DNA of 6,964 nucleotides. Origin: a virus (Duplodnaviria > Heunggongvirae > Uroviricota > Caudoviricetes). Location of the stretch: IMG/VR virus record IMGVR_UViG_2693429728_000005, positions 1-6,964 of that record; one strand, written 5' to 3'. Positions 1 through 6,964 of this stretch are shown piece by piece (position 1 is the stretch's first letter; each line of letters opens with the position of its first letter). The position numbers and the translations under genes are program-made. The notes under the pieces were generated by a model. The model had not been told where the DNA came from, made no database searches, and worked only from the letters and a program-made list of their open reading frames with translations.

Positions 1-1
1 G

Positions 2-406
2 GTGGTGAAGGATGCTTTTTATATTCATCAGCATAAAGGGACCACCAGTGCCGTGCGGCGGGTGGTGGAGCCGTTCGGATTCCTGATCCGCATTATTGAG
101 TGGTGGCAGACCGGAGAAACACCGGGCACGTTTCGCCTGGATATCGGCGTGCAGGACCAGGGCATCACTGAAGATACCTATCTGGAACTTGAGCGACTGA
201 TAAGCGATGCCAAACCATGTAGCCGCCACATGATCGGCATGTCCATCAATCTGCAGACCAGCGGCCCGCATTGGGTGGGAGCCGCCAGCTATCTTGGCGA
301 AGAAATCACGATCTATCCGTATATCAACGAAACGATTATTTCCGGTGGCACCGCGCATGAAGGCGGGGCGGTCCATGTTATTGACACAATGAGAGTGAAT
401 CCATGA
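2..406 (+). CDS. Baseplate assembly protein, P2 gpI-like, C-terminal part (5' end lies upstream of window)
   Basis: ORF runs from window edge; stop TGA overlaps ATG of the downstream fibre gene (ATGA at 403..406), typical translational coupling; position immediately upstream of H-like fibre gene matches P2 order I-H-G-FI-FII. Identity by synteny, not by search. Confidence 0.55.
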   Translation: MVKDAFYIHQHKGTTSAVRRVVEPFGFLIRIIEWWQTGETPGTFRLDIGVQDQGITEDTYLELERLISDAKPCSRHMIGMSINLQTSGPHWVGAASYLGEEITIYPYINETIISGGTAHEGGAVHVIDTMRVNP

Positions 407-1929
407 GCACAAAATTTTATACCCTGCTGACGGATATTGGCGCGGCGAAACTTGCCAGCGCCGCCGCGCTCGGTGTGCCGCTAAAAATTACCCATATGGC
501 GGTGGGCGATGGCGGTGGAGTATTGCCAACGCCGGACGCAAAACAGACGGCACTGGTAAATGAGAAACGCCGGGCTGCGCTGAATATGCTTTATATCGAC
601 CCGCAGAACAGCAGCCAGATTATTGCCGAACAGGTGATCCCTGAAAACGAGGGCGGTTGGTGGATACGTGAAGTGGGTCTGTTTGATGAGTCCGGGGCAT
701 TGATTGCCGTGGGCAACTGCCCGGAAAGCTATAAGCCGCAACTGGCTGAAGGTAGCGGGCGCACTCAGACCGTGCGCATGGTGCTGATTACCAGCAGCAC
801 GGACAATATCACCCTGAAAATCGACCCTGCTGTAGTGCTGGCAACCCGCAAGTATGTGGATGACAAGGCACTGGAGCTGAAGGTGTACGCGGATGATCAG
901 ATGGCAAAACATCTTGCCGCACCGGACCCGCATTCACAGTACGCGCCAAAAGCCAGCCCGACATTTACCGGAACCCCCAAAGCGCCAACGCCAGCGGCGG
1001 GGAATAATACCACGCAGGTTGCGACCACTGCGTTTGTACAGGCGGCACTGACGGCCCTTATTAATGGTGCGCCAGCCACGCTGGACACGCTGAAAGAAAT
1101 AGCCGCAGCCATTAACAATGATCCGAATTTCAGTACCACCATTAACAATGCGCTGGCACTAAAAGCACCGTTGTCGAGTCCGGCACTCACCGGAACGCCA
1201 ACAGCCCCCACGGCGGCGCAGTCGGTCAACAATACACAGATTGCCACTACGGCTTTTGTGAAATCGGCGATTGCAGGAATGGTGGGTTCTGCACCTGCTG
1301 CACTGGATACACTGAACGAACTGGCGGCGGCACTGGGGAATGATCCGAACTTTGCCACGACAATGCTTAATGCGCTGGCAGGTAAACAACCGCTGGACAA
1401 TACGCTTACCAATTTGAGTGGAAAGGATGTAGCTGGTCTTCTCACATACCTTGGTTTGGGAGAAGGCTCTGCATTGCCTGTTGGTGTGCCTGTTCCGTGG
1501 CCTTCAGCCACTCCGCCAACAGGCTGGCTGAAATGCAATGGTGCGGCTTTTTCTGCTGAAGAATACCCGGAACTGGCAAAGGCTTACCCGACAAATAAAT
1601 TGCCTGATTTACGCGGTGAATTTATTCGCGGCTGGGATGACGGGCGCGGGGTTGATGTTGGGCGTGCAATCTTATCATCGCAGGGCGATGCCATCAGAAA
1701 TATAATTGGCAAGTTTGGTAATACTCAATTGTACCCAAGTATCTATTGTGATGGTGCATTTGGCGTCACTGTTGAGAATGTGTCACAAACTTTAGGATTA
1801 ACTCTTGCGCCTTCAGGGGCAGGTAATGGGACTGTAAACTTTAGCTTTGATGCATCTAAAATCGTTCCTGTTGCCACTGAAAACCGGCCGCGCAACGTCG
1901 CATTTAACTTCATTGTGAGGGCTGCATAA
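403..1929 (+). CDS. Tail fibre protein (P2 gpH / Mu S-like): constant part Sc (aa 1-354) fused to variable tip Sv(A) (aa 355-508)
   Basis: 508-aa ORF; N-terminus MSTKFYTLLTDIGAAKLA...MAVGDGGG resembles P2 H N-terminus; internal NNTQxATTAFV...LDTLxExAAAxxNDPNF repeats typical of fibre shafts; C-terminus carries a tail-collar-like motif (PWPSATPPTGWLKCNGAAFSAEEYPELAKAYP...LPDLRGEFIRGWDDGRG); crossover site lies in-frame at codons 346-354 (LTYLGLGE). Confidence 0.9.
   Translation: MSTKFYTLLTDIGAAKLASAAALGVPLKITHMAVGDGGGVLPTPDAKQTALVNEKRRAALNMLYIDPQNSSQIIAEQVIPENEGGWWIREVGLFDESGALIAVGNCPESYKPQLAEGSGRTQTVRMVLITSSTDNITLKIDPAVVLATRKYVDDKALELKVYADDQMAKHLAAPDPHSQYAPKASPTFTGTPKAPTPAAGNNTTQVATTAFVQAALTALINGAPATLDTLKEIAAAINNDPNFSTTINNALALKAPLSSPALTGTPTAPTAAQSVNNTQIATTAFVKSAIAGMVGSAPAALDTLNELAAALGNDPNFATTMLNALAGKQPLDNTLTNLSGKDVAGLLTYLGLGEGSALPVGVPVPWPSATPPTGWLKCNGAAFSAEEYPELAKAYPTNKLPDLRGEFIRGWDDGRGVDVGRAILSSQGDAIRNIIGKFGNTQLYPSIYCDGAFGVTVENVSQTLGLTLAPSGAGNGTVNFSFDASKIVPVATENRPRNVAFNFIVRAA
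1439..1464. other. Invertase crossover site cix1 (26 bp, TTCTCACATACC-TT-GGTTTGGGAGAA), inside fibre gene at Sc/Sv boundary
   Basis: Near-palindromic 12-2-12 site resembling hix/gix/cix sites (half-site like TTCTCCCAAACC); sequence identity between copies begins within it; core dinucleotide TT on top strand. Confidence 0.75.
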
Positions 1930-2271
1930 TGGCACAGGCAAAATTAAACAGCGAACTGATTGCCACGGTAGCGGGTGATGTGACCGTGTTTAACTACGAC
2001 AGCAAGACGCGGGAATATCTTTCCACATCAACTGAATATCTTGCTGTTGGCGTCGGTATCCCGGCATGTTCTTGTTTAGATGCACCAGGTATACATAAAG
2101 CTGGTTATGCAATCTGCCGTTCAGCAGATTTAAACTCATGGGAGTATGTGCCAGACCATCGCGGTGAAATCATCTATAACACCGAAACGGGAGACGCCAA
2201 AGAAATCACAACTCCGGGTGATTACCCTGAAAATACAACCACTATCGCCCCGTTAACGCCATTCGATAAAT
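1451..2271 (+). repeat. Direct repeat copy 1 (821 bp): Sv(A) tip plus first 114 codons of tfa(A); identical to 2981..3801
   Basis: Base-for-base identity read from sequence and identical ORF translations; divergence at 1450 vs 2980 and at 2272 vs 3802. Confidence 0.9.
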
Positions 2272-2273
2272 AA
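1929..2273 (+). pseudogene. Truncated tail-fibre assembly gene (first 114 codons of tfa(A), then immediate TAA created by the rearrangement junction)
   Basis: 114-aa ORF identical to residues 1-114 of the 200-aa ORF at 3459..4061; lacks the C-terminal Tfa region (LNAVLDYIDAV...); sequence after codon 114 switches to the reverse complement of the invertase-downstream region. Confidence 0.8.
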
Positions 2274-2346
2274 GCGCAGTTGTACCGTTATTCACACAAA
2301 ATGACGGTATTTGTCTGCTTGCAGGGATAATCAAAATAATGCTGAT

Positions 2347-2913
2347 TCAGGGAGATTCATTGCTCTTATTTGCCGGAAATTTTCTATAAATAGTAGAAAC
2401 GCCTACATCAAAAATCAGTGCAATACGCTGTCTTGATTCTCCGGCCTCAAGTAAACGCCCAATCTGTGCCCACTGTTCGGTGGTCAACTTAGGACGGCGT
2501 CCACCTACTCTGCCTTTGGCACGAGCTGCAGCCAGCCCTGCCCTGGTACGTTCAACTATCAGTTCGCGTTCCATTTCAGCCAGGGCACCCATAACATGAA
2601 AAAAGAAACGGCCCATTGGGGTACTGGTATCAATACTGTCAGTCAGGCTTCGGAAATTCACGCCACGCTGGCGCAACTCTTCTATCAGCGTAACAAGATG
2701 CCGCATACTGCGCCCCAGTCTGTCCAGCTTCCAGACAACCAGAGTGTCTCCTGCCGATAGTGTCCTGAGCAGTTTTTTAAGCCCCGGTCTGTCGGACTTA
2801 GTGCCACTGATTTTATCCTCAAAAATCCGCTCACATCCCGCGCAGTTCAGTGCATTACGTTGCAAATCGGTGTTCTGGTCATTTGTTGACACGCGTACAT
2901 AGCCAATAAGCAT
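2347..2913 (-). CDS. Serine DNA invertase, Gin/Pin/Cin/Hin family, copy 1 (189 aa from the MLIGYVRVS start; ORF as drawn extends to 2958)
   Basis: N-terminus MLIGYVRVSTNDQNTDLQRNAL with catalytic-serine motif, VVWKLDRLGRS, FFFHVMGALAEMERELIVERT, and C-terminal HTH region GVSTIYRKF are hallmarks of small serine invertases, very close to Mu Gin as remembered; preferred start has an AGGGGA Shine-Dalgarno 7 nt upstream. Confidence 0.9.
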   Translation of the reverse strand: MLIGYVRVSTNDQNTDLQRNALNCAGCERIFEDKISGTKSDRPGLKKLLRTLSAGDTLVVWKLDRLGRSMRHLVTLIEELRQRGVNFRSLTDSIDTSTPMGRFFFHVMGALAEMERELIVERTRAGLAAARAKGRVGGRRPKLTTEQWAQIGRLLEAGESRQRIALIFDVGVSTIYRKFPANKSNESP

Positions 2914-2940
2914 GATCAATCCCCTGAATAAAAACCGGGG

Positions 2941-3459
2941 ATGATGCCAGTTAGCCATTATCTCTGCATTTTCATAAACGTTGGTTTGGGAGAAGGCTCT
3001 GCATTGCCTGTTGGTGTGCCTGTTCCGTGGCCTTCAGCCACTCCGCCAACAGGCTGGCTGAAATGCAATGGTGCGGCTTTTTCTGCTGAAGAATACCCGG
3101 AACTGGCAAAGGCTTACCCGACAAATAAATTGCCTGATTTACGCGGTGAATTTATTCGCGGCTGGGATGACGGGCGCGGGGTTGATGTTGGGCGTGCAAT
3201 CTTATCATCGCAGGGCGATGCCATCAGAAATATAATTGGCAAGTTTGGTAATACTCAATTGTACCCAAGTATCTATTGTGATGGTGCATTTGGCGTCACT
3301 GTTGAGAATGTGTCACAAACTTTAGGATTAACTCTTGCGCCTTCAGGGGCAGGTAATGGGACTGTAAACTTTAGCTTTGATGCATCTAAAATCGTTCCTG
3401 TTGCCACTGAAAACCGGCCGCGCAACGTCGCATTTAACTTCATTGTGAGGGCTGCATAA
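2941..3459 (+). CDS. Second copy of Sv(A) fibre-tip cassette, promoterless and not fused to Sc in this arrangement (cassette proper 2995..3459; the first 18 codons of the ORF are read-through across cix2 into invertase-upstream DNA)
   Basis: Residues after GLGE are identical to aa 355-508 of the fibre gene; N-terminal [14 protein letters not shown] is the antisense of the invertase leader and also appears at the start of the Sv(B) ORF, so it is not a genuine N-terminus. Confidence 0.6.
   Translation: MMPVSHYLCIFINVGLGEGSALPVGVPVPWPSATPPTGWLKCNGAAFSAEEYPELAKAYPTNKLPDLRGEFIRGWDDGRGVDVGRAILSSQGDAIRNIIGKFGNTQLYPSIYCDGAFGVTVENVSQTLGLTLAPSGAGNGTVNFSFDASKIVPVATENRPRNVAFNFIVRAA
2969..2994. other. 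Invertase crossover site cix2 (TTTTCATAAACG-TT-GGTTTGGGAGAA), same orientation as cix1
   Basis: Exact reverse complement of cix3; the left half-site is continuous with invertase-upstream sequence, the right half with Sv(A). Confidence 0.75.
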
Positions 3460-3801
3460 TGGCACAGGCAAAATTAAACAGCGAACTGATTGCCACGGTA
3501 GCGGGTGATGTGACCGTGTTTAACTACGACAGCAAGACGCGGGAATATCTTTCCACATCAACTGAATATCTTGCTGTTGGCGTCGGTATCCCGGCATGTT
3601 CTTGTTTAGATGCACCAGGTATACATAAAGCTGGTTATGCAATCTGCCGTTCAGCAGATTTAAACTCATGGGAGTATGTGCCAGACCATCGCGGTGAAAT
3701 CATCTATAACACCGAAACGGGAGACGCCAAAGAAATCACAACTCCGGGTGATTACCCTGAAAATACAACCACTATCGCCCCGTTAACGCCATTCGATAAA
3801 T
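2981..3801 (+). repeat. Direct repeat copy 2 (821 bp), identical to 1451..2271
   Basis: See copy 1. Confidence 0.9.
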
Positions 3802-4061
3802 GGGATGGTGAGAAATGGGTGACCGATACTGAGGCACAGCATTGCGCCGCAGTAGACGCGGCAGAAGCACAGCGTCAGTCACTGATTGATACTGCAATGG
3901 CTTCCATCAGTCTGATTCAACTGAAATTGCAGGCCGGGCGGAAGCTGACGCAGGCAGAAACCACCCGACTTAACGCTGTGCTGGATTACATTGACGCGGT
4001 GACGGCAACAGATACCAGCACCGCGCCGGATGTCATCTGGCCTGAACTGCCGGAGGCGTAG
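3459..4061 (+). CDS. Tail-fibre assembly protein tfa(A) (P2 gpG / Mu U-like), full length, 200 aa
   Basis: Start ATG overlaps the Sv(A) stop (TAATG); C-terminal LNAVLDYIDAVTATDTSTAPDVIWPELP resembles conserved Tfa C-termini; position directly after the fibre tip. Confidence 0.85.
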   Translation: MAQAKLNSELIATVAGDVTVFNYDSKTREYLSTSTEYLAVGVGIPACSCLDAPGIHKAGYAICRSADLNSWEYVPDHRGEIIYNTETGDAKEITTPGDYPENTTTIAPLTPFDKWDGEKWVTDTEAQHCAAVDAAEAQRQSLIDTAMASISLIQLKLQAGRKLTQAETTRLNAVLDYIDAVTATDTSTAPDVIWPELPEA

Positions 4062-4473
4062 GCCATTCAATATCTGGCGCACCGGAAGTATCGACCAGTT
4101 CCAGTGCGTCCAGGTAATCCAGCCACAAATTATATTGCGCCAGTTCGTCACCTTTCAGACGACCAATAGCCGCTTTACCAGGCCATTGTTTACTGTTCAT
4201 ATAATCGTTGGCCTGATTAATCAATTGCTGCTTCTCCAGTTCGGCTGCAGCAATTTGTTCCTCATGTGTTGGTGGTGGAATTTCGGACCATGCAGGAAAA
4301 CCATTTTCTCCAGCGATACGGATTTTTCCTTTCGGCGGTAATCCGGAAAACTCAATATACACTTGCTCATCAACTTCAACAGCATCATCTGGCCATGAGT
4401 CAGCTTGAGTGTAATCCTCTTTCATCTCCAGCGGATAGAAAGAGTTTGTAGTCGCGGAATATATGTAATTCAT
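4033..4473 (-). CDS. Alternative tail-fibre assembly protein tfa(B) (Mu U'-like), 146 aa
   Basis: Convergent with tfa(A), with 3' ends overlapping by 29 bp (4033..4061); C-terminal NLWLDYLDALELVDTSGAPDIEWPTPP parallels the tfa(A) C-terminus; GGAG Shine-Dalgarno upstream on minus strand. Confidence 0.8.
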   Translation of the reverse strand: MNYIYSATTNSFYPLEMKEDYTQADSWPDDAVEVDEQVYIEFSGLPPKGKIRIAGENGFPAWSEIPPPTHEEQIAAAELEKQQLINQANDYMNSKQWPGKAAIGRLKGDELAQYNLWLDYLDALELVDTSGAPDIEWPTPPAVQAR

Positions 4474-4494
4474 TTTTCACTCCATATAGCTAAA

Positions 4495-4887
4495 TTAACA
4501 GCCTAACGCTAAAAATGAAGCGCCGAGGCCAGGAGTACTGGCTCTGGATATAAATTTAACCGGGTCGGGACTAAAACCTGCACAGGCAATATAACCAACA
4601 GCCCCGCTATCTGGTGTGTAGTCTTGTGAGACCAAAACACGCAGACATCTGTTTGGAAATGCAATCGGGAAATGGGTTACTACATCCTGTGCAATGCCTG
4701 GTGCGCCGATTGAGCCCCACTGAAGAATAAAACCTGATGGTAATTTTTGATATCCAGTACCTGAAACAGAAAGCGTGAAGCTACCCATATCAGGTATCTG
4801 ATTCGCCCCTGTCCCTACATTCCTTTTAGCCGCTTCTCCCAAACCAACGTTTATGAAAATGCAGAGATAATGGCTAACTGGCATCAT
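4495..4887 (-). CDS. Alternative fibre-tip cassette Sv(B), silent in this orientation (cassette proper 4495..4833, 112 aa after GLGE; the ORF as drawn reads through cix3)
   Basis: Minus-strand reading through cix3 gives ...NVGLGE then [19 protein letters not shown]...ALGC, in the same frame as Sc across the crossover site; inversion would produce a 466-aa Sc+Sv(B) fibre; sits directly upstream (minus sense) of tfa(B). Confidence 0.75.
4834..4859. other. Invertase crossover site cix3 (TTCTCCCAAACC-AA-CGTTTATGAAAA), inverted relative to cix1 and cix2
   Basis: 12-2-12 site; close to the hix half-site as remembered (TTATCAAAAACC); core AA on top strand versus TT at cix1/cix2. Confidence 0.8.
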
Positions 4888-4914
4888 CCCCGGTTTTTAT
4901 TCAGGGGATTGATC

Positions 4915-5481
4915 ATGCTTATTGGCTATGTACGCGTGTCAACAAATGACCAGAACACCGATTTGCAACGTAATGCACTGAACTGCGCGGGATGTGAGCG
5001 GATTTTTGAGGATAAAATCAGTGGCACTAAGTCCGACAGACCGGGGCTTAAAAAACTGCTCAGGACACTATCGGCAGGAGACACTCTGGTTGTCTGGAAG
5101 CTGGACAGACTGGGGCGCAGTATGCGGCATCTTGTTACGCTGATAGAAGAGTTGCGCCAGCGTGGCGTGAATTTCCGAAGCCTGACTGACAGTATTGATA
5201 CCAGTACCCCAATGGGCCGTTTCTTTTTTCATGTTATGGGTGCCCTGGCTGAAATGGAACGCGAACTGATAGTTGAACGTACCAGGGCAGGGCTGGCTGC
5301 AGCTCGTGCCAAAGGCAGAGTAGGTGGACGCCGTCCTAAGTTGACCACCGAACAGTGGGCACAGATTGGGCGTTTACTTGAGGCCGGAGAATCAAGACAG
5401 CGTATTGCACTGATTTTTGATGTAGGCGTTTCTACTATTTATAGAAAATTTCCGGCAAATAAGAGCAATGAATCTCCCTGA
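4915..5481 (+). CDS. Serine DNA invertase, Gin/Pin/Cin/Hin family, copy 2 (ORF as drawn starts at 4870)
   Basis: Identical protein to copy 1; AGGGGA Shine-Dalgarno before ATG 4915; a GATAAT -10-like hexamer at 4866..4871 abuts cix3, consistent with a promoter overlapping the crossover site. Confidence 0.9.
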   Translation: MLIGYVRVSTNDQNTDLQRNALNCAGCERIFEDKISGTKSDRPGLKKLLRTLSAGDTLVVWKLDRLGRSMRHLVTLIEELRQRGVNFRSLTDSIDTSTPMGRFFFHVMGALAEMERELIVERTRAGLAAARAKGRVGGRRPKLTTEQWAQIGRLLEAGESRQRIALIFDVGVSTIYRKFPANKSNESP

Positions 5482-5529
5482 ATCAGCATTATTTTGATTA
5501 TCCCTGCAAGCAGACAAATACCGTCATTT

Positions 5530-5547
5530 TGTGTGAATAACGGTACA
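5530..5547 (+). promoter_or_regulatory. TGT-N12-ACA dyad, candidate P2-type late-promoter activator (Ogr/Delta family) site upstream of the sheath gene
   Basis: TGTgtgaataacggtACA lies about 75-95 nt upstream of the sheath ATG (5624), appropriate for an element centred near -55; P2 late promoters carry this dyad. The same dyad is mirrored at 2281..2298 inside the left repeat arm. Confidence 0.4.
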
Positions 5548-5623
5548 ACTGCGCTTAGCTGTTTGTCAGGCACAATCACTTCAACATAGGGCGAAGCCTA
5601 ATCCAATCAGGAGGTTCGCCACT

Positions 5624-6796
5624 ATGGCTCAGGATTACCACCACGGGGTGCGCGTTGTTGAAGTCAACGAAGGCACCCGATCCATTACCACGGTGAGCAC
5701 CGCCATCGTGGGTATGATCTGCACGGGCGATGATGCCGATGCAAAAATGTTTCCTCTTAATAAACCCGTGCTGATCACTGATGTGCTGACTGCCAGCGGT
5801 AAAGCGGGTGAGTCCGGTACTCTGGCCCGTTCGCTGGATGCCATCGCTGACCAGGCAAAACCCGTGACCGTTGTTGTGCGTGTGCCGCAGGGTGAAACGG
5901 AAGACGAAACCACGACCAATATCATCGGCGCTGTGACTGCTGAAGGTAAAAAAACAGGCATGAAAGCCCTGCTATCTGCCCAGTCACAGCTCGGCGTTAA
6001 ACCGCGCATTCTCGGCGTGCCAGGTCACGATAACAAAGCCGTTGCGACTGAGTTGCTGAGCGTGGCGCAAAGCCTGCGTGGGTTTGCTTACCTGTCAGCG
6101 TATGGCTGCAAGACGGTACAGGAGGCGATCACTTACCGTGAAAACTTCAGCCAGCGCGAAGGAATGCTGATCTGGCCCGACTTTACTGGCTGGGATACGG
6201 TGTTGAATGCCGAAGCAACGGCATATGCCACCGCCCGTGCGCTTGGTCTGCGCGCCAAAATTGATGAGCAGACCGGGTGGCACAAAAGCCTGTCCAACGT
6301 GGGCGTGAACGGTGTCACCGGAATTTCTGCAGATGTGTTCTGGGATCTGCAGGACCCGGCAACCGATGCGGGACTGCTTAACCAGAACGACGTCACCACG
6401 CTTATCCGCAAAGACGGTTTCCGCTTCTGGGGTTCCCGCTGCCTGAGTGATGACCCGCTCTTTGCCTTCGAAAACTACACCCGCACGGCGCAGGTACTGA
6501 TGGACACGATGGCAGAAGCGCATATGTGGGCGGTGGACAAACCGCTGAACCCGTCGCTGGCCCGCGACATTATCGAAGGTATCCGCGCCAAAATGCGCAG
6601 CCTGGTCAGTCAGGGGTATCTCATTGGTGGTGATTGCTGGCTGGACGAGTCGGTGAACGACAAAGACACGCTGAAAGCCGGAAAACTCACCATCGACTAT
6701 GACTACACGCCAGTGCCGCCACTTGAAAATCTGATGCTGCGTCAGCGCATCACCGATCAGTACCTGGTGAATTTTGCCAGCCAGGTCAGCGCGTAA
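5624..6796 (+). CDS. Tail sheath protein (P2 gpFI-like), 390 aa
   Basis: Strong AGGAGG Shine-Dalgarno 8 nt upstream; N-terminus [31 protein letters not shown] matches the contractile-tail sheath N-terminus of P2-like phages as remembered; followed by tail tube gene. Confidence 0.9.
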
Positions 6797-6805
6797 GGGG
6801 ACAAC

Positions 6806-6964
6806 ATGGCTTTACCACGCAAATTAAAACATCTGAACCTGTTTAACGACGGGAACAACTGGCAGGGGATCGTAGAGTCTTTGACGCTGCCGAAATTCAC
6901 CCGCAAATATGAGAAGTATCGCGGCGGCGGAATGCCGGGTGCAGTGGATGTGGATCTGGGGCTT
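6806..6964 (+). CDS. Tail tube protein (P2 gpFII-like), N-terminal 53 codons; continues beyond window
   Basis: ATG at 6806 preceded by AAGGGGA; translation MALPRKLKHLNLFNDGNNWQGIVESLTLPKFTRKYEKYRGGGMPGAVDVDLGL read manually; resembles FII N-terminus and follows the sheath gene as in P2. Confidence 0.75.
   Translation, partial: MALPRKLKHLNLFNDGNNWQGIVESLTLPKFTRKYEKYRGGGMPGAVDVDLGL

Follow-up and report, generated by a model that had tools for sequence, protein, structure and literature searches.

Is the duplication in the tail-fibre locus of this tailed virus a property of the phage, or of the assembly in which its sequence was recorded? The window, that is, the whole stretch of DNA analysed (6,964 nucleotides, positions 1 to 6,964 of IMG/VR record IMGVR_UViG_2693429728_000005), had been predicted to hold an unstable locus with an uncoupled fibre chaperone. 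The anatomy described in that original prediction stands, but misassembly, which it had itself named as the case that would overturn its interpretation, is now the best-supported reading. We put at about 0.65 the probability that the 1530-bp duplication is an assembly artefact from a culture in which an ordinary invertible segment was present in both orientations. The extra 1530 bp (1451-2980) are most likely present in no DNA molecule, and the duplication is most likely neither a new nor a defective phage locus.

What kind of locus underlies the anomaly? It is a host-range switch for tail fibres of the ordinary P2-like (Peduoviridae) kind, in which a Gin/Cin-type serine invertase flips a 1.9-kb segment, Sv(A)-tfa(A) plus Sv(B)-tfa(B), between two 26-bp crossover sites. 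The features of the window are as follows.

403..1929, plus strand: tail-fibre gene (P2 H-like; open reading frame and Pfam), constant Sc fused to variable Sv(A), 508 aa
1439..1464, plus strand: crossover site cix1, TTCTCACATACC TT GGTTTGGGAGAA, central TT at 1451-1452, the Sc/Sv(A) joint of the G(+) state
1451..2271, plus strand: first direct-repeat copy, Sv(A) and tfa(A) codons 1-114, 821 nt, 100% identical to 2981-3801
1929..2273, plus strand: truncated tfa(A), 114 aa, all residues native, TAA stop made at the junction
2270..2272, no strand: junction at which tfa(A) position 3801 meets the reverse complement of 5557
2271..2995, minus strand: inverted invertase block, 725 nt, a 100% copy of 4833-5557 with the invertase gene within it
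2969..2994, plus strand: hybrid crossover site cix2, TTTTCATAAACG TT GGTTTGGGAGAA, an invertase/Sv(A) joint typical of the G(-) state
2981..3801, plus strand: second direct-repeat copy, 821 nt
3459..4061, plus strand: intact tfa(A), 200 aa (open reading frame), with the Pfam domain Caudo_TAP on residues 78-199
4033..4473, minus strand: tfa(B), 146 aa (open reading frame), with Caudo_TAP
4495..4887, minus strand: silent Sv(B) cassette, open reading frame running across cix3, with the Pfam domain Gp53-like_C
4834..4859, plus strand: crossover site cix3, TTCTCCCAAACC AA CGTTTATGAAAA, inverted relative to cix1 and cix2
4915..5481, plus strand: serine DNA invertase in its normal position, 188 aa, with Resolvase and HTH_7
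5624..6796, plus strand: tail sheath gene (P2 FI-like; open reading frame and relatives), the right-hand flank

The fibre protein carries the Pfam domains Phage_tail_fib (residues 1-150) and Collar (361-408), and two related loci, L002 and L012, have the same 508-aa gene. Sv(A) and tfa(A) lie on the plus strand and Sv(B) and tfa(B) on the minus strand, providing alternative C-termini, each with its cognate chaperone gene. The invertase is a small serine recombinase with a resolvase domain (residues 3-135) and a C-terminal helix-turn-helix (HTH_7, 138-181), as in Gin, Cin, Hin and Pin. Its best match among solved structures is chain 3uj3, deposited as 'DNA-invertase' (E 8e-93, 184 residues), which we take to be phage Mu Gin. 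The crossover sites are near-palindromes of 26 bp with a 2-bp centre; cix1 and cix3 have the inner half-site TTCTCCCAAACC in common and read TT and AA, respectively, at their centres on the plus strand, as two inverted sites should. A requirement for a Fis-dependent recombinational enhancer, expected within the 5' portion of the invertase gene, is known from Hin (PMC3798978). Natural isolates show the segment in both orientations: G(+) in L002, and G(-) in L005, L006 and L010, whose flanks are identical or nearly so.

The anomaly has a simple geometry. Self-comparison of the window shows that the two 821-nt stretches agree at every base with a spacing of 1530; their identity ends at 1450/2980, within crossover sites, and at 2272/3802. 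The 821-bp direct duplication of Sv(A) and 5' tfa(A) described in the original prediction is thus confirmed, with the same outer coordinates. Between the copies, and not stressed in that prediction, the inverted block contains the invertase gene together with the crossover site upstream of it and 76 nt of the gene's 3' flank, and a perfect inverted repeat of 725 nt is too long for a chance match. Since 2271-2995 is a perfect inverted copy of 4833-5557, the whole anomaly is a single 1530-bp insertion (1451-2980), and the locus that received it is a standard P2-like inversion switch for tail fibres, with an invertase of the Gin/Cin type. The inserted invertase gene appears in the list of open reading frames as an antisense frame at 2347..2913/2958 on the minus strand, and a second Sv(A) frame with an ATG start occupies 2941..3459.

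Where does each part of the window come from? When 1451-2980 is removed, the remaining sequence matches the canonical G(+) prophage L002 (E. coli, NCBI GCA_041003375.1) at 5434 of 5434 nt (100.000%), and E. coli SL124 with 99.9% identity. Positions 2961-4847 and 4833-5600 match L006 and L010, the same prophage in the G(-) state, with 100% identity. From these identities it follows that every base but the join at 2271 belongs to one or other natural state. The crossover sites tell the same story: cix1 and cix3 are G(+)-type joints, whereas cix2, in direct orientation relative to cix1, is a G(-)-type joint, so that the window mixes both states. By these comparisons, the window is a mosaic: it combines both natural states of one prophage with one new, homology-free junction.

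The junction itself is of the inversion type and unites points 1756 bp apart. The two sides overlap by a single common T at 2271, with no flanking homology in either orientation; with one base of homology, microhomology or template switching was rejected as a specific mechanism. A 22-mer across the junction has no match in GTDB representative genomes, IMG/VR or JGI metagenome contigs, a 400-nt junction query is covered to at least 80% in none of 5426 complete E. coli genomes, and the reciprocal junction was not found in IMG/VR. The exact 114-aa Tfa(A) protein has no match in a catalogue of 153 billion gene positions. The exact intact Tfa(A) occurs in 198 indexed blocks of the contig collection, from which the 24 longest contigs were examined. 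A 9-of-12 match to a crossover half-site, GGATGGTGAGAA at 3803-3814, adjoins the tfa(A) breakpoint in the correct register, as a junction made by the invertase would predict; this speaks against an artefact. Non-cix positions that score as well number only 5 of 5392, and our own rough estimate is p = 0.01 after allowing for registers, for a site chosen post hoc.

How could an assembly produce such a structure? In at least 20 of 79 draft contigs, the end falls at the crossover site, 64-131 nt before the invertase start; therefore mixed orientation in the sequenced DNA is routine. One contig, built from G(+) reads, would begin in the constant part of the fibre gene and extend into Sv(A)/tfa(A) for about 0.8 kb. 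A second would start about 0.7 kb beyond the invertase, read backwards through the invertase and across the G(-)-type joint, and continue through the whole invertible segment and over the G(+)-type joint into the invertase and sheath genes. The two overlapping contigs would then have been laid end to end at 2271. A walk through a de Bruijn graph was considered as a sufficient cause and rejected: in a mixed-orientation graph, the path from the inverted invertase through G to the invertase is valid, but the mid-segment join at 2271 is not, so that an abutment of contigs or a chimeric read must still be invoked.

Similar structures exist in the same collection. Among 80 IMG/VR loci with this invertase, four (L029, L032, L059 and L083) contain perfect direct and inverted duplications, with the invertase present two or three times. 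Read as its reverse complement, L029 has the exact architecture of the window with other breakpoints, its blocks running Sc-cix-a / (part of the sheath gene plus invertase) inverted / cix-a-b-cix / invertase-sheath. All six novel junctions in these four loci consist of a single N, which is a scaffold join, and no other N occurs in loci L001-L092. The non-cix contig ends of the four loci lie 601-949 nt from a crossover site in seven of eight cases; the breakpoints of the window lie at 821 and about 710 nt. As in the window, then, there are duplications with breakpoints 0.6-0.95 kb from the sites, and the difference is that these joins carry an N and that of the window does not. By analogy, the N-free join of the window probably arose in the same way as the marked ones.

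The case for an assembly artefact rests on this combination: the collapsed sequence is 100% canonical, the junction is unique, and the same architecture is found elsewhere only across single-N joins. Removal of the extra block restores a normal relative, the copies are identical, and joints of both states are combined in one sequence. The unmarked join does not fit. Unlike in all four analogues, the junction bears no N or other mark, and all bases of the window are A, C, G or T; an unmarked abutment or a filled gap must therefore be assumed. N-free duplications of this kind are absent from 79 GTDB loci, 80 metagenome loci and the complete E. coli genomes, and no comparable N-free locus was found among 239 related loci or the complete E. 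coli genomes.

The best of the alternatives, which we regard as unlikely, is a real, very recent and private rearrangement, in which 3801 (tfa(A) codon 114) was joined to 5557 (76 nt beyond the invertase gene) and crossover sites were exchanged between G(-) and G(+) copies. The same outcome could be written as a 1530-bp circle (Sv(A)-tfaA' plus inverted invertase) integrated at cix1 or within Sv(A), or as a 3801/5557 inversion followed by unequal sister exchange at cix; in each form the product is a switch with three crossover sites, two invertase genes and four isomers. The lack of any N or ambiguity in the window agrees with this reading, and the hybrid cix2 is exactly the product expected of a crossover-site exchange. 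Yet at least two rare events are needed, one of them intermolecular, and Gin/Cin-family invertases strongly disfavour intermolecular exchange. Neither copy of the invertase gene has lost any of its upstream region, and each could therefore be expressed. The structure would also be workable internally: the inversions simulated with the window taken as given yield one isomer with fibre A and no Tfa but the truncated one, another with fibre B (466 aa, from inversion of Sv(B), matching L005) and a fully canonical fibre A-Tfa(A) isomer. Against a natural origin are the zero divergence between the copies, the lack of a second case in any collection searched, the fact that the sole structural twins are scaffold joins, and breakpoint distances within the range of scaffold artefacts. 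In addition, an 821-bp perfect direct repeat should be readily lost by RecA-dependent recombination.

If the rearrangement is real, the invertase might have made the first joint at quasi-sites, and recombination at quasi-cix sites by P1 Cin has reportedly been seen by Iida and co-workers. The in-register 9/12 half-site at the 3801 breakpoint, with its rarity in the window, favours such an origin; the partner site at 5557 scores poorly, with 4 and 6 of 12, and the two sites have different central dinucleotides (TG vs TA). The joining of two quasi-sites, neither of them a true cix, is not a usual event. With one good half-site, a poor partner and unequal centres, invertase action at two quasi-sites was retained as no more than a minority reading. 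The full version, in which the invertase acted at a weak secondary site in tfa(A) beside 3803-3814 and a G(+)/G(-) crossover-site exchange then duplicated the invertase gene and added a third crossover site, is accordingly quite improbable.

The slimmest chance is given to a junction that was present in the sequenced molecules but made in vitro, with which an assembler confused by mixed orientation bridged the locus. Possible sources are a ligation chimera, a mate-pair circularisation junction or a strand-switch chimera from multiple-displacement amplification. The insert corresponds to a 1530-bp G(-) fragment, from 5557 back across the invertase/Sv(A) joint to 3801, with its ends joined, and circularising one such fragment would give exactly this insert; the inversion type, the 1756-bp separation, the one-base overlap and the unmarked sequence all agree with this. 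A lone chimeric molecule is normally outvoted by normal coverage, however, and the sequence cannot tell an in vitro chimera from a plain contig abutment.

What remains of the predicted defect in fibre assembly? The first tfa(A) copy is indeed truncated at codon 114, as the open reading frame and Pfam agree. It lacks the conserved C-terminal region: Caudo_TAP occupies residues 78-199 of the intact protein, and the sole similarity between Tfa(A) and Tfa(B) is confined to residues 128-198; a Pfam search of the 114-aa copy found no domain, and Tfa(A) has no sequence-level match among solved structures. The intact tfa(A) does lie 1530 bp downstream, behind the antisense invertase gene, but the functional concern about uncoupling is weaker than was claimed. 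The distal gene retains a GAGG Shine-Dalgarno sequence of its own, 8 nt upstream, as well as a TAATG overlap with the ATG-initiated Sv(A) frame, and the same one-base TAATG overlap is found at both fibre/tfa boundaries. No convincing terminator, only weak candidates, is predicted on the plus strand between 2271 and 3459; a hairpin at about 2283-2311 was rejected as a terminator, as it does not stand out from shuffled sequence (z = -1.0). Tfa-type chaperones are separate proteins, and Mu Tfa remains bound to the fibre (PMC9608196). As a separate protein, Tfa could therefore act from the distal gene.

The instability of the locus, if the structure is real, would follow from its long perfect repeats, direct over 821 bp and inverted over 725 bp. 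Recombination between cix1 and cix2 had been proposed to delete the 1530 bp and restore coupling; the geometry is right and both centres are TT, but Gin/Cin/Hin invertases strongly disfavour deletion between direct sites, and the realistic route to this deletion would be RecA-dependent recombination. In simulation, two ordinary inversions of the window suffice to give an isomer that equals the canonical locus over its first 4027 nt, without any deletion.

How does the locus compare with known switches? It resembles the G segment of Mu (Gin) and the C segment of P1 (Cin) in its serine invertase, its 26-bp sites and its Sc plus Sv(A)/Sv(B) parts with their own Tfa genes, and its prophage is likewise found in both orientations; the backbone is P2-like instead, and the third crossover site and second invertase gene, which the canonical systems lack, are probably not real. 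Also comparable are P2-like Peduoviridae with an invertible H-G region, for example Escherichia phage 500465-1 (Wadgaonvirus, NC_049342) and the L002 and E. coli SL124 prophages. These have the same gene order, I-H-tfa / tfa'-Sv' / invertase / sheath, but are 1530 bp shorter, with a single invertase gene, a single tfa(A) and only two crossover sites. Min of p15B and the Rci shufflons have several different cassettes served by one recombinase and conserved between isolates. The window, if real, would likewise exist as several isomers, with more than two sites for crossover, but its extra segment is an exact copy that brings no new cassette and has been seen once. With the junction and the truncated protein found nowhere else, it does not appear to be a natural multi-site inversion system of the Min or shufflon type.

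A real structure would be a rare snapshot of a two-site fibre switch growing into a multi-site, multi-isomer system, while still a single unstable variant of a well-understood one. In one isomer, the chaperone would be made as a truncated, fibre-binding fragment, which might hamper the assembly of fibres; the locus would offer a natural experiment on whether Tfa's N-terminal half disturbs this process. If the duplication is an artefact, the lesson is that invertible phage and bacterial loci get sequenced as mixed populations. Scaffolded drafts may then hold perfect duplications, phantom second invertases and phantom truncated chaperones, as in 4 of the 80 IMG/VR loci studied here, and such phantoms are open to misreading as pseudogenes, gene-dosage changes or new multi-site switches.

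Two further candidates were dismissed. The only dual-invertase locus matched in complete genomes, in E. coli FDAARGOS_1287, is natural but has two different invertases and other flanks, and therefore represents a different phenomenon. A second, near-identical G cassette branching the graph at 3801 was rejected, as the cassettes show no difference at the breakpoint; the cassette recurs in Mu-like and other prophages with 99.6-99.9% identity.

The window spans late tail genes of a P2-like prophage, as judged from open reading frames (ORFs) and Pfam matches, with the following features:

2..406: 3' end of a gpI-like gene (ORF)
403..1929, + strand: fibre gene, 508 aa (Phage_tail_fib and Collar domains)
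1929..2273, + strand: tfa(A) fragment, 114 aa (ORF; no Pfam matches)
2347..2913, - strand: extra copy of the invertase gene (ORF)
2941..3459, + strand: second Sv(A) frame (ORF)
3459..4061, + strand: intact tfa(A) (Caudo_TAP on residues 78-199)
4033..4473, - strand: tfa(B) (ORF and Pfam)
4495..4887, - strand: silent Sv(B) cassette (ORF and Pfam)
4915..5481, + strand: second invertase gene (ORF and Pfam)
5624..6796, + strand: sheath gene (ORF)
1451-1452 (TT), 2981-2982 (TT) and 4846-4847 (AA): centres of the three 26-bp crossover sites, cix1, cix2 and cix3

Among solved structures, the invertase best matches chain 3uj3 (E 8e-93), an entry deposited as 'DNA-invertase' that we recognise as phage Mu Gin. 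The mechanical ORF begins at an upstream ATG and would encode 203 aa (window 4870-4914 being extra); public annotations and the solved-structure alignment support a predicted start at 4915, giving a 188-aa form.

The original prediction described an 821-bp direct repeat, and positions 1451-2271 and 2981-3801 are indeed identical at 821/821 positions. The anomaly is larger than was stated: the 725 nt at 2271-2995 repeat 4833-5557 perfectly in inverted orientation, and this block carries the invertase gene together with the crossover site upstream of it and 76 nt of 3' flank. The direct and inverted blocks overlap at base 2271 and at the inner crossover half-site; the anomaly is therefore one 1530-bp insertion. 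With S for the constant part of the fibre, a for Sv(A) and tfa(A) codons 1-114 together, b for what remains of the invertible segment, i for the invertase block, and T for the sheath side, the canonical order is S a b i T and that of the window is S a i' a b i T. At the 2271 junction, tfa(A) position 3801 is joined to the reverse complement of 5557, with one T in common and no flanking homology. The first tfa(A) copy is truncated as described: only native residues 1-114 remain, the junction creates the stop codon, and the conserved C-terminal region (residues 128-198, which hold all similarity to Tfa(B)) is missing.

Is this structure a property of the phage or of its assembly? The nearest phages, Escherichia phage 500465-1 and Klebsiella phage Kp4845-2, and E. 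coli SL124 all follow the usual gene order (fibre, tfa, tfa', Sv', invertase, sheath), and this stretch is 1530 bp shorter in each. When 1451-2980 is removed from the window, the remaining 5434 nt are identical at every base to a canonical G(+) prophage (L002, NCBI GCA_041003375.1), while window 2961-4847 and 4833-5600 are identical at every base in two loci (L006 and L010) that carry the opposite orientation of the same prophage. Thus, the window is a mosaic that combines both natural states of one prophage, and only the join at 2271 is new.

We collected loci encoding this invertase from IMG/VR (80), GTDB (79), and metagenomes (80), and screened each for internal repeats, ambiguous bases, and additional copies of the invertase. 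Four of the 80 IMG/VR loci carry perfect duplications, with the invertase present two or three times. One of these, L029, has on its reverse strand exactly the architecture of the window: S-cix-a (799 nt), an inverted sheath part with the invertase (about 897 nt), and cix-a-b-cix-invertase-sheath. Its crossover joints are of the same three kinds as those of the window. All six novel junctions in the four loci consist of a single N (L029, 7831; L032, 2494 and 4146; L059, 2523 and 5198; L083, 3875), and no N occurs elsewhere in loci L001-L092. Such a lone N is the mark that a scaffolder leaves where it abuts two contigs. The duplications in these four loci are products of assembly: contigs that overlap, but were built from cells in opposite orientation states, are written successively. 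Seven of their eight non-crossover contig ends lie 601-949 nt from a crossover site, and the window breakpoints lie at 821 and about 710 nt. Draft contigs very often break off at the crossover site, 64-150 nt before the invertase gene begins. Of the 79 GTDB loci (L094-L172), at least 20 have an end 64-131 nt before that point, and by our count about 15 of the 80 metagenome contigs (L173-L252) also stop at the crossover site. This is consistent with sequenced DNA of mixed orientation, apparently the rule in such cultures. Scaffolding duplications of this kind in public IMG/VR contigs will raise gene counts falsely and lead the annotation of these phages astray.

We put the probability that the window duplication is an assembly artefact at roughly 0.65. 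The original prediction was accurate as description, but the N-joined twins and the mosaic of two states argue against a biological feature. It is probably no feature of the phage itself, and the locus beneath it is a switch of a well-known type.

A real rearrangement private to this phage is unlikely, although the window is free of N and a 9-of-12 crossover half-site in the correct register, one of five such among 5392 positions, adjoins the tfa(A) breakpoint. The partner site at the other breakpoint is poor, the central dinucleotides of the two are unlike, and at least two rare events would be required, one of them intermolecular. Moreover, the copies show zero divergence, and the sole twins are artefacts with matching breakpoint distances. 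Finished genomes show nothing similar: a 400-nt query spanning the 2271 join reached at least 80% coverage in 0/5426 complete E. coli genomes, and no comparable N-free duplication was found in these genomes or among the 79 GTDB and 80 metagenome loci. An exact search with a 22-mer spanning the join was negative in GTDB representative genomes, IMG/VR, and JGI metagenomes; the 114-aa Tfa(A) was absent among 153 billion gene positions, and the reciprocal junction from IMG/VR. A chimeric molecule formed in vitro and picked up by the assembler is very improbable.

What would follow if the structure were real? The cix1 and cix2 sites are direct repeats, with cix3 facing the other way; four isomers arise when the allowed inversions are simulated. 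In the window state, fibre A is coupled to the truncated Tfa, and intact tfa(A) lies 1.5 kb downstream in the sense direction. A second isomer has fibre A with intact tfa(A) antisense, and we predict that this would be the defective one. A third has fibre B (466 aa), and the first 4027 nt of the fourth are identical to the canonical locus. This last isomer is reached by two inversions, so coupling could be restored without the proposed deletion. RecA-dependent recombination at the 821-bp repeat would be the main expected route to losing the 1530 bp; in this invertase family, deletion between direct sites is disfavoured. The case for an uncoupled chaperone is weaker than was proposed: the distal tfa(A) retains its own GAGG 8 nt upstream and a TAATG overlap with an ATG-initiated frame, and no convincing terminator candidate was found between the two tfa copies. 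Tfa proteins bind the fibre by their variable N-terminal domain, and their conserved C-terminal helices act in trimerisation and assembly (work summarised in PMC9608196); a 1-114 fragment might therefore compete with intact Tfa.

Whichever Sv cassette is silent gains an ATG-initiated frame (window 2941-3459, +; 4495-4887, -) that starts in the opposite-strand invertase leader and reads through the crossover site. It is annotated as a gene in public records, for example as 'gp53-like domain-containing protein', and its expression is putative. The right-hand breakpoint lies 10 nt past a TGT-N12-ACA dyad at 5530-5547 (copy at 2281-2298), about 80 nt upstream of the sheath gene. The dyad, also the stem of a weak hairpin, is similar to the activator-binding element in P2 late promoters; the excess of the motif in the window is not significant (5 observed, 2.1 expected).

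Of the complete E. coli genomes, FDAARGOS_1287 alone matched a query for two invertases flanking a segment, and it was rejected as a counterpart because its two invertases are different genes with different flanks. There (L093, NZ_CP070071.1, 129686-132867), a similar invertible segment lies between a P2-like recombinase and pinE, bordered by P2-like tail genes at one end and by ssrA-proximal genes at the other. It looks as if crossover sites from two different prophages had recombined, and the result may be a large inversion of the chromosome. The 1.9-kb invertible cassette Sv(A)-tfa(A)-tfa(B)-Sv(B) (window 2981-4846) is 99.6-99.9% identical across unrelated prophage backbones (L003, L004, L007-L009, and L011, at about 7520-9394 in each), which are P2-like, Mu-like (with Gp45-48 baseplate genes), and of at least one other contractile-tail type. 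The invertase and constant fibre part differ from one backbone to the next, and the cassette appears to travel between phages as one unit.
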